From Eubacteriales bacterium (GTDB lineage: Bacteria > Bacillota > Clostridia > Oscillospirales > CAG-272), in contig JAZSGJ010000108.1 in NCBI GenBank assembly GCA_045532675.1, positions 1 to 46,152 on the forward strand: 46,152 nucleotides of DNA, in the 5' to 3' direction. This document shows positions 28,644 through 34,470 of this stretch, in pieces. The notes below the pieces were generated by a model. The model did no database searches and was not told the DNA's origin. It worked only from the letters and a program-made list of their open reading frames with translations. The translations under genes and the position numbers were made by a program. Position 1 is the stretch's first letter, and every line of letters begins with the position of its first letter.

Positions 28644-28916
28644 TTAAATCCGTTTTAATTCGTCGAGCTCCTTTTGAATCCTTGTAATAACCTGCAATCT
28701 TTTTTCATCAGAAGATACGTCAAGTCTTGTTCTGCATACAAGATAATCGATGGAAACATTAAAAAAATCGGCGAATTTTATCAGCGCGTATGCATCGGGA
28801 ACGGTTTTTCCGGTCTCGTAGTTTGAAATTGTCCGTTGGTCGATGCCGGTCTCTCTCGCAAGGTCGCTTTGGCGAAGGTCTCTGTCTTCGCGTAAATCCT
28901 TGATTCTCGTAGTCAT
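28644..28916 (-). CDS. XRE-family HTH regulator, divergent from the SipW locus
   Basis: 90 aa. LRQSDLARETGIDQRTISNYETGKTVP is the HTH. A short helical C-terminal tail follows. Confidence 0.85.
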   Translation of the reverse strand: MTTRIKDLREDRDLRQSDLARETGIDQRTISNYETGKTVPDAYALIKFADFFNVSIDYLVCRTRLDVSSDEKRLQVITRIQKELDELKRI

Positions 28917-28985
28917 TTCCTTTCTCCTAATTTATTCCAATTTTAAAGTTATACTGAATTTTACCATAAAATTTCTAAAAACATC

Positions 28986-29014
28986 TTGACATACCAATAA
29001 TTATCTTATATAAT
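28986..29014 (+). promoter_or_regulatory. consensus sigma-A promoter of the SipW/TasA-like operon
   Basis: TTGACA (28986..28991), a 17-bp spacer, then TATAAT (29009..29014). Confidence 0.6.
28991..29012 (+). repeat. 22-bp direct repeat copy 1 (candidate operator, overlaps the promoter spacer)
   Basis: ATACCAATAATTATCTTATATA is identical at 20 of 22 positions to copy 2. Confidence 0.55.
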
Positions 29015-29092
29015 AGATGGGCTACTAAAACTTTAGTATAAGAAAGAGATAAAGGAATATTTTTTCTTATTCGTTTTTTTAAAGCGTAATAT

Positions 29093-29114
29093 ATACCAAT
29101 AAATATATTATATA
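29093..29114 (+). repeat. 22-bp direct repeat copy 2 (candidate operator, in the leader)
   Basis: ATACCAATAAATATATTATATA lies 102 bp downstream of copy 1. Confidence 0.55.
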
Positions 29115-29154
29115 CAATTTAGGTGAAAATTTACGTTACATGAGGAGAGAGGTT

Positions 29155-31555: not shown

Positions 31556-31646
31556 AAAAGAAAAATTTCATTTTATAAAGCGCCTAAAAACAGTTTTAGA
31601 CGTTTTGTAAAGTGAAAAACATAGTTTACCGAAAGGAAAAAGCATT

Positions 31647-32510
31647 GTGCAAGAAGGTCAGACTAATACAGCGGTAAATAGTAAGCAAAGACGCGAATTC
31701 GTGTGGATTATGCTTATGGTAAATATCGTTTTCATATTGATTTTGATGACGGTTGGTATTGTTGCGCTTAGAGTCGGTAATTACCTGCCAGAAAATACAG
31801 ACATACTTTTCGTTGTCGGTAAAAATCCATCCTTTGAAATTGAGGATTCAAATAAAAAGTCGTGGGAATCCGGAACCGAAGTCAATATTTTCTCATCAGA
31901 GTATAAAAACGGAGATAATGTAACCAGCGTTGTTTCACAGGACGGAACGGCTGTTATAGCGCCGGGAACCCGTTCGGTTTATAAATTCGGTATGTATAAC
32001 AACGGGAATATGGCCGTTGTTTATGAAACCGATATAGATTTTGACTTGAGTATAGGCGGTGAGGGTCAAGGCGATTATACCTTTCCGCTAGTCGTGAGAC
32101 TTAAAACAGAATCCGGCGAATATTTACTCGGTGGCGATAACGAATGGGTAAACGTCAACGATGCAAAGCTTAAACGGCACGTTAGCACGCTTGGCGCCCG
32201 TTCATACGAAGGATTTGTGCTTGAGCTCCTTTGGGAGTTTGAGGGCGGAAATGACGAGCTTGATACGATGTATGGCAATGCATCTTCCGAAAAAGGCGTT
32301 AACCTTACTCTTGGGATAGGAACATACGCGGAGGAGCATATAAATCCCGAGGCTAAGGGCGGAACTCCTATACAGTTGGACGGCGATAATTCAAATTCGG
32401 AATACGGAGGCACGTTCCGCTGGGGTTGGCTCTTAATTCTAATAATTAATGCGGCTATACTTTTATTCTACGTTGCATGGCTGCTCAACAAACGGTTACA
32501 GAAATGGTAA
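31647..32510 (+). CDS. membrane-anchored TasA-like paralogue (TM segments at both the N and C termini)
   Basis: The GTG start follows AAAGGAAAAAG. The central domain shares IAPGTRSVYKFGMYNNG and LLWEFEGGNDELDTMYG with 30790..31503. The C-terminus reads GGTFRWGW, then a TM segment, then KRLQKW. Confidence 0.6.
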   Translation: MQEGQTNTAVNSKQRREFVWIMLMVNIVFILILMTVGIVALRVGNYLPENTDILFVVGKNPSFEIEDSNKKSWESGTEVNIFSSEYKNGDNVTSVVSQDGTAVIAPGTRSVYKFGMYNNGNMAVVYETDIDFDLSIGGEGQGDYTFPLVVRLKTESGEYLLGGDNEWVNVNDAKLKRHVSTLGARSYEGFVLELLWEFEGGNDELDTMYGNASSEKGVNLTLGIGTYAEEHINPEAKGGTPIQLDGDNSNSEYGGTFRWGWLLILIINAAILLFYVAWLLNKRLQKW

Positions 32511-33064
32511 ATAACAAAAAGAGAAAAATTTCCATACATAGAATACTGATAATTATTTTTATAAGTCTGGTTTTGGGATTTGGAATATATCACCTAAACG
32601 CAAAGACCCTAACGGGTGAGCAAATGCCTATGCCGTTTGGAATCGGTGTCGGTGTGGTCATGTCCGGCAGTATGGAGCCTGAGCTTTCTGTTGATGACGT
32701 TATAATAGTGAAAAAGTGTGATAATTATAACGTTGGAGACACAGTTGTTTATCAGGACGGAAGGACTCTTATCGTACATAAAATTATTGAAGAAAACGGT
32801 GATACCGTTGTCACTCAGGGAACGGCAAACAACACTCCCGATGAGCCGATAACTCTATCAGCGGTTAAGGGCAAGGTAATTCGTTCTATTTCCGGACTCG
32901 GTATACTTGTTAAGGTAATCAAATCTCCAGCCGTTACGCTCTTTATGCTTGCCGCTGCGGTTTATCTTCTGTATCGCTCTTATCAGCGGGAGAAAGAAAA
33001 CAATGAAAACGATTTGGACCTAATACGACAAGAAATCGAAAAAATCAAAGAAAATTTAAAATAG
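32504..33064 (+). CDS. sipW: signal peptidase I, SipW/archaeal-ER type (S26B), copy 2
   Basis: The Ser box is VMSGSMEPELSVDD, the His box is LIVHKI, and QGTANNTPD is present. It has a C-terminal TM segment and a coiled tail. The ATG at 32504 overlaps the upstream stop (ATGGTAA). Confidence 0.85.
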   Translation: MVNNKKRKISIHRILIIIFISLVLGFGIYHLNAKTLTGEQMPMPFGIGVGVVMSGSMEPELSVDDVIIVKKCDNYNVGDTVVYQDGRTLIVHKIIEENGDTVVTQGTANNTPDEPITLSAVKGKVIRSISGLGILVKVIKSPAVTLFMLAAAVYLLYRSYQREKENNENDLDLIRQEIEKIKENLK

Positions 33065-33138
33065 GCTAAATGCTTAAAAAGGTAAAACACGAAAGGACGG
33101 TGTTTTAAATATCAAAGTTAAATAAAAAAGCACCTATC

Positions 33139-33753
33139 GTGTTTCGCATTGGAATGACGCTTTTGTGTTTGGCTCTTGTAAGCTTACATATTATATCCGG
33201 TCTTTACGCCAGATATCTGACAACAGCAAACCGAGACAACAGCGCACGCGTGTCAAAATTTAATGGCGCAATGATTGAATCGGAGCAAATTTTATTTCCT
33301 AAAATGGAAATTAAATCGGGTCAGCATGAGGGTACGTACGCTTTTCTTGTGACGTTTAATGTGACGTTTGAAAATGAAGTAGCGAGTGAATATATTCTTG
33401 AACTTACTATCGGAGAAGACGTTGATATTAGTTTTACTTGTCCTGTCAACAGCAAATATTTTACTGTAAGTGAAGAGGGCGGTGCTCCAAAAGAAATTTA
33501 CACTCCGAGTGAAATTAACTCCGCCTTTAATGGCATGGCTTTTACAGTTAACGGTACTTATTGCATGGTCGATGGTTGTAGTGAATCACCTACGCAAAAT
33601 ATACAAGCAAAGAAAGCGACGTACACCTATACATCGCTCGGATTTAATGAAACACATAATTATCAAATTTTGATTTTTACGCAGGTGTCGACGGCTGCAA
33701 TAGATAAAAACTACACCATTGAATATTCAATAAAAAACAGTCAGGTGGATTAA
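33139..33753 (+). CDS. secreted protein with SipW-cognate-type signal peptide, second substrate
   Basis: The N-terminus IISGLYARYLTTANRDNSARVSKF parallels AISGTFAKYTTSEGANDSARVAKW of 30790..31503. The RBS is weak. The start could be GTG 33139 or ATG 33154. Confidence 0.55.
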   Translation: MFRIGMTLLCLALVSLHIISGLYARYLTTANRDNSARVSKFNGAMIESEQILFPKMEIKSGQHEGTYAFLVTFNVTFENEVASEYILELTIGEDVDISFTCPVNSKYFTVSEEGGAPKEIYTPSEINSAFNGMAFTVNGTYCMVDGCSESPTQNIQAKKATYTYTSLGFNETHNYQILIFTQVSTAAIDKNYTIEYSIKNSQVD

Positions 33754-34470
33754 ATGAGCACTAAAAAATTAATTATCAAAATGGAGCAGTGCATACTTGT
33801 TATTCTGATTTTGTTTTTACTTGTCGTCGAAATTCCGTTTGCTTCAGGTAAATATTCCAGAGTTACATCGGGAAAACTCACCATATCTTTTGAGGACGTG
33901 GGATTTATTGCGACAAAAGGCGCGCTTGATACGTTTGATCAAATTCTAAATGGCGATAACTACGATGTGTTGCTTGATGCAATGAATAACGGAGAAGGGC
34001 GCGGTGAAACGTATATTGGAAACGTTACCGGCGCAACCGGTCCTGATACCGAGGCACTTAAAGCGTTGTTCGGAGAGAATCTTACATTTGGCGATAAGCC
34101 TATCACGTTGATTATCAAACGTGAGGATTTAGACGGAGACGGAAGTGATGAAATGACAATATATATGACGGCTGATGAGCCTGGTGGAAGTTACAGGTTT
34201 GGCATTGGATCGAATATAGTTACATTGGATGTTTATGCTGCGGTTTTTGAATGCAAGTTGGATGCTGAAGGAAATACCGTATGGATTCAAAACGGAGAAA
34301 CTTTTGCCGGAACAGCACCCTCATATCCATATGACGGTAATACTTGGGGTATTTTGGAGGCAATTGATTGCGACTCTTTTAGAACGGATAATTGGCGCTC
34401 CTCTCAATCCTATAATGGCGTGAATAGCCCAGCAGTGCTTTCTGATGTTGTAAAATCTTACAAGCAATGA
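33754..34470 (+). CDS. secreted protein with related signal peptide, third substrate, acidic DxDGDG loop
   Basis: An AGGTGGA RBS is present and the ATG abuts the upstream TAA. The signal peptide ends PFASGKYSRVTSG. The mature part is unrelated to the other two and contains EDLDGDGSDE. Confidence 0.55.
   Translation: MSTKKLIIKMEQCILVILILFLLVVEIPFASGKYSRVTSGKLTISFEDVGFIATKGALDTFDQILNGDNYDVLLDAMNNGEGRGETYIGNVTGATGPDTEALKALFGENLTFGDKPITLIIKREDLDGDGSDEMTIYMTADEPGGSYRFGIGSNIVTLDVYAAVFECKLDAEGNTVWIQNGETFAGTAPSYPYDGNTWGILEAIDCDSFRTDNWRSSQSYNGVNSPAVLSDVVKSYKQ

Follow-up and report, generated by a model that had tools for sequence, protein, structure and literature searches.

The contig JAZSGJ010000108.1 of a Eubacteriales bacterium (assembly GCA_045532675.1; Clostridia, Oscillospirales, CAG-272), analysed over its whole length of 46,152 nucleotides (nt) and referred to here as the window, carries an operon of seven tightly packed, co-directional open reading frames (ORFs) on the plus strand (29140–34470, from the ORF list and the sequence). 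The operon encodes a membrane protein (P1), two signal peptidases of the SipW type (W1 and W2), a secreted protein that may form a surface fibre (S3), a paralogue of S3 with membrane segments at both ends (M4), and two further products, p6 and p7 (Table 1). Operons of this type are widespread and conserved, and they are made almost wholly of proteins without a family assignment. Compared with its relatives, the window copy is best described as a conserved clostridial operon whose proximal half is intact and whose distal half is reduced.

Table 1. Features of the operon and its immediate surroundings (window coordinates)
Feature	Position	Strand	Basis
XRE-family helix-turn-helix regulator	28644–28916	-	HTH_3, 1e-16
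Sigma-A consensus promoter	28986–29014	+	TTGACA-17-TATAAT, 12/12
P1, single-pass membrane protein	29140 (or ATG 29155)–29949	+	Likely start ATG 29155
W1, SipW-type (endoplasmic reticulum (ER)/archaeal-type, S26B) signal peptidase I	29942–30664	+	TIGR02228, 92.5 bits
S3, putative major fibre subunit	30790–31503	+	Signal peptide SGTFA|KY, beta-sandwich model
Stem-loop after S3	31521–31556	+	dG -20.5 kcal/mol
M4, S3 paralogue with membrane segments at both ends	31647–32510	+	hhalign to S3
W2, second SipW-type peptidase	32504 (alternative 32477)–33064	+	TIGR02228, 71.1 bits
p6 (S6 family), putative minor S3-like subunit	33109–33753 (first canonical start GTG 33139)	+	Alignment with S6 homologues
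p7, secreted alpha+beta protein	33754–34470	+	52 homologues, AlphaFold2 (AF2) model
Internally deleted IS1182-family element	34510–35329	.	Transposase fragment match and 21-nt inverted repeats

The original prediction, made from the DNA letters alone, had placed one plus-strand gene cluster behind a promoter at 28986, and both elements were recovered. The promoter agrees with the sigma-A consensus at all 12 positions; the window holds three perfect TTGACA-N17-TATAAT sites, against 0.01 expected from shuffled sequences. The other two lie at 15332–15360 (plus strand) and 39435–39463 (minus strand). Within the cluster, the overlaps can be read from the sequence: the ORFs of P1 and W1 share 8 nt, M4 and W2 are coupled through the claimed ATGGTAA at 32504–32510, and the stop codon of p6 stands directly against the ATG of p7, which has GGTGGA upstream. 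S3 has an upstream AAGGAG of its own. No credible riboswitch or other RNA was found in the leader or the intergenic regions, and the leader holds no Rfam element.

S3 is the presumed major subunit. Its homologues fill 2,359 database clusters, all of them unnamed and none with a Pfam domain, and S3 itself has no Pfam, NCBIfam or PDB sequence match (profile searches of the PDB with S3 and M4 returned chance matches only). The predicted signal peptide, MKKNKFMRIASVMLMLCVITTCAISGTFA|KY, has the form cognate to SipW, with a basic n-region, a hydrophobic core, G-T-[FW]-A and an aromatic residue. The GTFA-KY ending claimed for it is present as SGTFA|KY, which is invariant across 60 homologues, as is the predicted cleavage region SGTFA|KYVT as a whole. 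The most conserved part of the protein is the N-terminus, MKKNKMMRLAS..LLTTCAISGTFAKYVTS....D.ARVAKWGV, and the signal peptide is followed by a conserved extension of 18 residues, KYTTSEGANDSARVAKWG. This N-terminus, despite being the most conserved region, is unstructured in the monomer model. The AF2 model of S3 is a beta-sandwich (predicted local distance difference test (pLDDT) 88, predicted template modelling score 0.77). Its best Foldseek matches in the PDB are TLP-1b (E 8e-3), TLP-1a, the TasA fibre 8aur and the pilin domains of FimH, FocH, PapG and SafA, with 8aur ranking second (probability 0.91, E 1e-2, template modelling (TM) score 0.34). The top matches are all donor-strand-exchange fibres, among them the TLP-1 fibrils (PMC11494351).

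The hairpin that had been noticed after S3 lies directly 3' of the gene (31521–31556, dG -20.5 kcal/mol). Most relatives have an equivalent stem-loop after S3, with a median minimum free energy of -27.5 kcal/mol and z below -2 in 77%. The element is probably a partial terminator or an mRNA stabiliser that raises the output of S3 over that of the downstream genes; its conservation and the separate ribosome-binding site of S3 point to an excess of S3. An orphan S3 homologue (57% identical) stands alone among unrelated metabolic genes at 8001–8714 of a related locus (L001; related loci are numbered in this way below), and some genomes therefore have extra copies of the putative major subunit outside the operon.

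M4 had been described as a paralogue of S3 with transmembrane segments at both ends, and this description held: hhalign relates the two at a probability of 99.1% (E 1e-18), and the hydrophobic segments of M4 span residues 15–48 and 255–282. When 42 M4 homologues were scanned with Pfam and NCBIfam, the sole recurring match was a weak one to DUF7507, in 17 M4 proteins. The C-terminus of 42 of the 69 M4 homologues compared carries xPxTG (PPQTG, SPKTG, PPKTG and others) with a membrane segment and a basic tail, an arrangement that looks like a sortase sorting signal. Instead of xPxTG, M4 proteins of the clade that also carries P1, to which the window belongs (window 32370–32510 and homologues), have a conserved GGT[IFV]RW[LG]W before the C-terminal helix and end in KR.QKW; in the window protein the series is GGTFRW, a membrane segment and KRLQKW. 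The GGT[IFV]RW[LG]W motif may be a different sorting or retention signal. In related loci, M4 and the next peptidase gene typically overlap by 4 nt.

Both p6 and p7 had been put forward as additional secreted proteins with the same type of signal peptide. For p6 this stands, as it is a third member of the S3 family, with the N-terminus SGLYA|RY..SARVSKF. The position of its ancestral start is occupied by ATA at 33109, 11 nt after GAAAGGA, where L086 has TTG and L079 and L046 have ATG; the codon before it is TAA in the window and TTA in L086. Canonical starts are first met at GTG 33139 and ATG 33154, neither of which has a ribosome-binding site, and p6 may be weakly translated or dead. Neither this damaged start nor the sortase-type signal of most M4 relatives had been picked up in the first reading. 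p7 was rejected as an S3 paralogue and as a TasA-like beta-sandwich, since its AF2 model (pLDDT 85) is alpha+beta and finds no fold match in the PDB, and the protein has no homology to S3. The 52 homologues of p7, mostly 350–380 residues (aa) long, have TasA-style signal peptides and an extra N-terminal domain, which p7 lacks. M4, p6 and p7, like S3, belong to no Pfam or NCBIfam family. Homologues of p7 are also encoded in small clusters of another kind, together with an S26 peptidase (L084 and L085). In L084 (6140–10074), the genes encode a protein of 166 aa, one of 370 aa that matches Peptidase_S26 weakly, one with a faint match to DUF5305 and then the p7-like protein; in L085 (7524–10029), the small cluster holds a full-length p7 relative. 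These clusters may represent a second uncharacterised peptidase-linked secretion module.

P1 consists of a single membrane segment, an acidic linker and a conserved C-terminal domain. Because a run of Arg and Lys follows the membrane segment, the bulk of P1 is probably cytoplasmic. The protein has no Pfam, NCBIfam or PDB match (the PDB search gave chance hits only), and it is encoded upstream of W1 in 13 related loci.

The claim of two SipW-type S26B peptidases was confirmed with TIGR02228, the model of the archaeal and ER type of signal peptidase I, where W1 (92.5 bits) and W2 (71.1 bits) both lie above the curated cut-off of 51.85 bits; the bacterial-type model TIGR02227 gives them only 25–30 bits, under its own cut-off. 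NF046067, the equivalog model of Bacillus SipW, is not reached (83.8 bits for W1 and 47.6 bits for W2, cut-off 190). Judged by these scores, W1 and W2 are in the same subfamily as Bacillus SipW and are not its orthologues. In an alignment of 93 W1-like and 60 W2-like sequences, a Ser box (SM.P) and a His box (HR) are found in both proteins, and W1 also has GD.N. The catalytic-type residues of W1, mapped by motif and spacing without a direct alignment to SipW, are Ser74, His116 and Asp135; the Asp lies at His+19, the spacing that separates the catalytic residues His87 and Asp106 of SipW (PMC8767453). W2 has Ser65 and His101, with Thr116 where the Asp of the GD box is expected (numbering from the 32477 start). 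Residues 115–119 of W2 (window 32822–32836) read GTANN, and 53 of the 60 W2 homologues have GDAN, the Asp of which corresponds by spacing to the catalytic Asp106 of SipW. Thr is found at this position in three other W2 proteins as well; in L079 neither peptidase has the GD-box Asp (its W2 is like that of the window, and its W1 reads GINN), and some W1 proteins of other relatives carry changes similar to that of W2. Because the same or similar changes occur in relatives, even in W1, the replacement of Asp by Thr was rejected as proof of decay.

The distribution of the system was surveyed with one genome per species. Loci with S3 relatives are present in 521 species-representative genomes, mostly of Ruminococcus, Oscillospiraceae, Lachnospiraceae, Christensenellaceae and Acutalibacteraceae. 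Animal guts are the main source, and the carriers include two cultured strains, Ruminococcus sp. XPD3002 (L021), which has the full operon, and Pseudoruminococcus massiliensis Marseille-P3876 (L080). The order W1–S3–M4–second peptidase is seen in 64 of the 81 loci examined for gene order, and most of the remainder are truncated by the end of a contig. Two peptidases are therefore usual in this system, and the window genome is not odd in having them. The architecture had been called unusual. This is correct with respect to the literature searched, in which no published description of the two-peptidase architecture was found, but not with respect to genomes, where it is a conserved and widespread operon type. 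The suggestion that the peptidases are SipW-type enzymes dedicated to the neighbouring substrates, and not housekeeping enzymes, is supported because they are synteny-locked with S3 and M4 in these 64 loci.

Downstream of the second peptidase, related loci have one or two S6- or S3-like genes and then usually a protein of 1,200–2,100 aa, which reaches 4,158 aa in L002. These giant proteins have no Pfam domains, except for Listeria-Bacteroides repeats in one. Most related operons end with a gene for a protein of about 180 aa with a TasA-style signal (..A[YL]M..T..V.N.F), which matches the BsaA model TIGR04090 (2e-10 and 2e-9) at 37–41 bits, under the 60-bit cut-off (for instance, L008 3781–4317 and L020 18000–18629). 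In loci of the P1 clade (L045, L051, L059, L061, L065, L077 and L081), the second peptidase is W1-like and the distal proteins (1,200–1,500 aa) begin with an S3-type ..S[KR]YV[TG].. motif. Because of this motif, the large protein of the P1 clade may plug into a fibre via the same N-terminal strand. The giant protein, the BsaA-like gene and the variability after W2 had been missed when only the window sequence was read.

Two close relatives help to define what has happened to the window copy. L086 is 90.7% identical in DNA over window 28342–33144, with the breakpoint at the very start of p6 (33144; L086 4806 onward); for L079 the identity is 86% up to 30288, and divergence is greater within the operon. 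Past W2, the three gene sets differ completely. In the window they are p6 and p7. L086 encodes another S6 protein there and a product of 372 aa that has a signal of the S3 type and matches LRR_5 weakly. L079 (7950–15669) carries a pair of S6 genes, the gene for a 1,889-aa protein and then a remnant 93% identical to the p6/p7 junction of the window. It looks as if tip or adhesin genes had been exchanged as cassettes. The window lacks the giant and BsaA-like genes, and the remnant of an insertion sequence (IS) follows p7. At the protein level, the window and L086 are 95% identical in W1, 98% in M4, 90% in W2, 76% in S3 and 78% in P1, and W1, M4 and W2 are free of frameshifts. S3 (30790–31503; L086 2440–3165) is thus at 76% while its neighbours W1, M4 and W2 are at 90–98%, a divergence that would fit diversifying selection on an exposed protein.

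The non-canonical ancestral start of p6, the Thr of W2, the missing N-terminal domain of p7, the absence of the giant and BsaA-like genes and the IS remnant abutting the locus could together suggest that the whole locus is decaying and has no current function in the window genome. This is very improbable given that the ORFs of P1, W1, S3 and M4 are intact, have good ribosome-binding sites, show translational coupling and lie behind a perfect promoter, and that W1, M4 and W2 retain 90–98% protein identity to L086 without frameshifts. The part from P1 to M4 looks functional, and the part after W2 looks partly decayed.

With slightly better than even confidence, we propose that the operon builds a cell-anchored surface fibre, a pilus-like adhesive appendage, from SipW-processed subunits. 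The subunits would be exported by Sec and kept tethered by their unusual signal peptide until a dedicated SipW-type peptidase cuts after the Ala of SGTFA. The freed N-terminal extension would then serve as a donor strand that enters the beta-sandwich of the next, still tethered subunit. A donor-strand mechanism has been described in the structure of the TasA fibre (PMC9674648) and proposed for BsaA (PMC11580942). S3, with its own ribosome-binding site and the conserved stem-loop that follows it, would be the abundant shaft subunit; S6 and the variable distal products (a giant protein, a leucine-rich repeat (LRR)-like protein or p7, depending on the genome) would be minor or tip components. The fibre would grow tip first, and M4, incorporated last, would hold it on the cell, linked to the wall by sortase via xPxTG in most lineages and retained by its membrane helix alone in the window lineage. 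The two peptidases, both of which are translationally coupled to their neighbours, would probably serve different substrate classes or assembly steps. A polar, anchored heteropolymer would agree with the features observed, namely SipW-type peptidases in fixed synteny, homologous subunits of which one carries an anchor, an invariant signal and N-terminal segment, the stem-loop after S3 and variable distal genes.

Several observations weigh against the anchored fibre. The structural matches of S3 are weak, with E about 1e-2 and TM scores of 0.30–0.35. PF12389 (Peptidase_M73) is not matched by S3, M4, p6, p7 or the 42 M4 homologues, and TIGR04088–TIGR04090 are not matched by any window protein, nor is the BsaA model by any of 60 S3 homologues. 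The C-terminus of the window M4, ..EYGGTFRWGWLLILIINAAILLFYVAWLLNKRLQKW, has no xPxTG. In the main clade, the giant proteins carry signal peptides of the ordinary type. Finally, the Thr of W2 in place of Asp may mean either that the Asp is dispensable or that some of the peptidase copies are not proteases.

A relation to TasA had been part of the original prediction, and it is only partly supported. S3 and M4 were compared with TasA in hhalign, first with TasA as a single sequence, verified against 8aur, and then with a profile of 36 TasA sequences. Neither comparison was significant, and against the TasA profile the profiles of S3 and M4 gave E 0.0095 and 0.013 at a probability of 3–4%. Only the signal peptide (MKKK..GGTWA|AF in TasA, MKKN..SGTFA|KY in S3) and a PG[DT]..F.L.N.G strand align, and the PG[DT]..N.G motif is generic to Ig folds of the CARDB/DUF11 kind. 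Between S3 and the BsaA-like proteins of related loci, the N-terminal signal regions can be aligned (probability 70%, E 4e-5). As a control, the BsaA-like proteins were compared with TasA and reached a probability of only 26%, so that comparison by sequence is close to its limit in this superfamily. In terms of sequence, S3, M4 and p6 are placed outside the TasA and BsaA families, and S3 can be called TasA-like only weakly, by its modelled structure. Thus, the profile searches that had been suggested supported the peptidases (TIGR02228) and gave no match to a TasA/M73 or BsaA model, and family membership failed every sequence test. The structure prediction supported a beta-sandwich with weak fibre matches for S3 and an alpha+beta fold with no match for p7.

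A different arrangement of the same parts can be imagined, in which S3, M4 and S6 form a wall-spanning stalk of fixed stoichiometry that presents the large variable protein, and the peptidases only remove signal peptides. Such a display scaffold would suit the giant or variable protein that follows the subunits in most loci, the wall or membrane anchor of M4 and the weak similarity of the structures to fibre subunits. We consider it unlikely. A fixed stoichiometry is at odds with the excess of S3 indicated by the stem-loop and the separate ribosome-binding site and with the orphan extra S3 copies (L001). The invariant N-terminal extension is hard to explain without a role between subunits, and the window and L086 keep S3 and M4 in the absence of a giant protein.

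The closest characterised system is sipW-bsaA-bsaB-bsaC of C. perfringens (Obana, 2020, PMC7395162; Kivimaki, 2025 preprint, PMC11580942). As in the operons described here, the gene for a SipW-type peptidase comes first, followed by a polymerising major subunit (the polymerisation of S3 being presumed), a paralogue and a large secreted protein as the last product. Donor-strand exchange is the proposed mechanism in C. perfringens too, and the related loci of the present system end in a gene that matches the BsaA model. BsaB homologues of some strains bear LPXTG and have been proposed as anchors (PMC11580942), and several paralogues per operon beside peptidase and sortase genes were reported in a survey. 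The C. perfringens operon differs in having one peptidase, whereas two peptidases and extra minor subunits are found here, and the distal protein here lacks a von Willebrand factor A (vWA) domain. The window shows no connection with genes for type IV pili.

In B. subtilis (tapA-sipW-tasA) and B. cereus (sipW-tasA-calY), a dedicated ER-type peptidase is likewise encoded beside its substrates (TasA fibre 8AUR, PMC9674648; TapA, PMC10151520). The signal peptides are alike (MKK...GGTWA|AF in Bacillus, MKKN...SGTFA|KY here), a PG[DT]..F.L.N.G strand is shared by the beta-sandwich subunit of Bacillus and S3, which is modelled as a beta-sandwich, and the divergent XRE-type regulator of the window recalls SinR. 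The system here lacks a TapA homologue, and it goes beyond the Bacillus operons in its second peptidase, its paralogue with an anchor and its giant genes at the distal end. In how it would work, the system is regarded as resembling bsa and tapA-sipW-tasA. Its additions are the second peptidase, minor subunits, an anchored paralogue that is obligatory and a distal protein that is giant or variable.

As these closest characterised systems make matrix fibres (PMC9674648, PMC7395162, PMC11580942), the product could instead be a fibre shed into a biofilm matrix like TasA or BsaA, with the role of M4 limited to that of a TapA-like nucleator or chaperone; TapA is an accessory protein encoded beside sipW. 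The window M4, lacking a sortase motif, would be compatible with that role. This is somewhat less likely again than the scaffold: most M4 proteins carry xPxTG, a membrane segment and a basic tail, and large adhesin-like distal genes, one of them with Listeria-Bacteroides repeats, fit an adhesive appendage.

The proposed anchored fibre also has points in common with sortase-assembled pili of the SpaA type, which have a major subunit, minor or tip subunits, a base subunit with a C-terminal LPXTG-like signal, and variable tip proteins. The pilin motif and the CnaB/SpaA domains of such pili are absent here, and none of the conserved genes of the operon was recognised as encoding a sortase, the flanking ORFs not having been screened for one. 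Polymerisation is presumed to proceed by non-covalent strand exchange triggered by the signal peptidase and not by transpeptidation. Chaperone-usher pili, the archaeal AbpA bundling pili (PMC9245690) and TLP-1 fibrils (PMC11494351) are all fibres of donor-strand-complemented beta-sandwiches. Compared with these fibres, the present system has neither chaperone nor usher and belongs to a Gram-positive host, and the similarity is weak and purely structural. A more ambitious form of the proposal, which we hold only tentatively, is that the operons encode a third kind of Gram-positive pilus. In this model, a heteropolymer would be built tip first by donor-strand exchange, and each addition would be licensed by cleavage by the two SipW-type peptidases, one for the shaft and the other for tip, minor and anchor subunits. 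The paralogue with a sortase signal, or with a membrane helix in the window lineage, would terminate and anchor the fibre. A swappable adhesin cassette, made up of the genes beyond the second peptidase, would tune the adhesion of gut and rumen Clostridia.

The carriers are abundant but poorly understood Clostridia of gut and rumen, and how they attach to plant fibre, mucus and each other is largely unclear. If the proposal of an anchored fibre is true, candidate adhesive appendages would be available for the carriers in 521 species-level genomes, and the principle of SipW, TasA and BsaA would reach beyond shed matrix fibres to pilus-like structures that are anchored and have several subunits. 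The proposal also gives a testable reason for the duplication of dedicated signal peptidases. The variable distal cassette and the fast evolution of S3 suggest selection by hosts, phages or substrates.

On both sides of the operon lie ordinary chromosomal genes of a spore former in the Clostridia. The XRE gene that had been reported in divergent orientation was confirmed (HTH_3 at 1e-16, minus strand, 28644–28916). L079 and L086, both close relatives, are the only ones that share it upstream, although L024 may have a distant counterpart. It was therefore rejected as a component of the system, and a role as a local repressor of the operon is possible. A strong bidirectional terminator (28608–28643) lies between the XRE gene and sigG (NF006071, 379.5 bits), which is immediately upstream. 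The position next to sigG, the requirement of SipW for the incorporation of TasA into spores (PMC8767453) and the history of TasA as a spore-associated protein make a spore-surface or sporulation-linked appendage conceivable. The option is weak, because among relatives the adjacency to sigG is seen only in L079 and L086 and the promoter is a perfect sigma-A consensus. Moreover, sigG is set apart from the locus by the terminator, other genomes have different flanks (for instance, SecA or pyrimidine genes), and many carriers are Ruminococcus and related metagenome-assembled genomes; a spore appendage is as improbable as the decay of the whole locus.

On the other side, two IS remnants had been reported to close the locus. 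A C-terminal transposase fragment (34801–35145) matches DDE_Tnp_1_6 (2e-19) and IS1182 (1e-16, model positions 417–486 of 488), and an N-terminal fragment (34657–34794) was assigned by eye, having no Pfam match. Because 21-nt inverted repeats (34510–34530, AAAGTAAAAGGGGCTGTCTCA; 35309–35329, TGAGACAGCCCTTTTAAGTTT) enclose both fragments, they are better read as one internally deleted IS1182-like element than as two remnants; no intact DDE transposase lies between the repeats. Downstream of this element, addB is encoded on the minus strand (35550–38831; TIGR02773, 1e-151). The place adjoining addB where addA is usually found is taken by the IS remnant and the fibre locus, and an 815-aa helicase encoded elsewhere in the window (10814–13261) is PcrA-like and not AddA.

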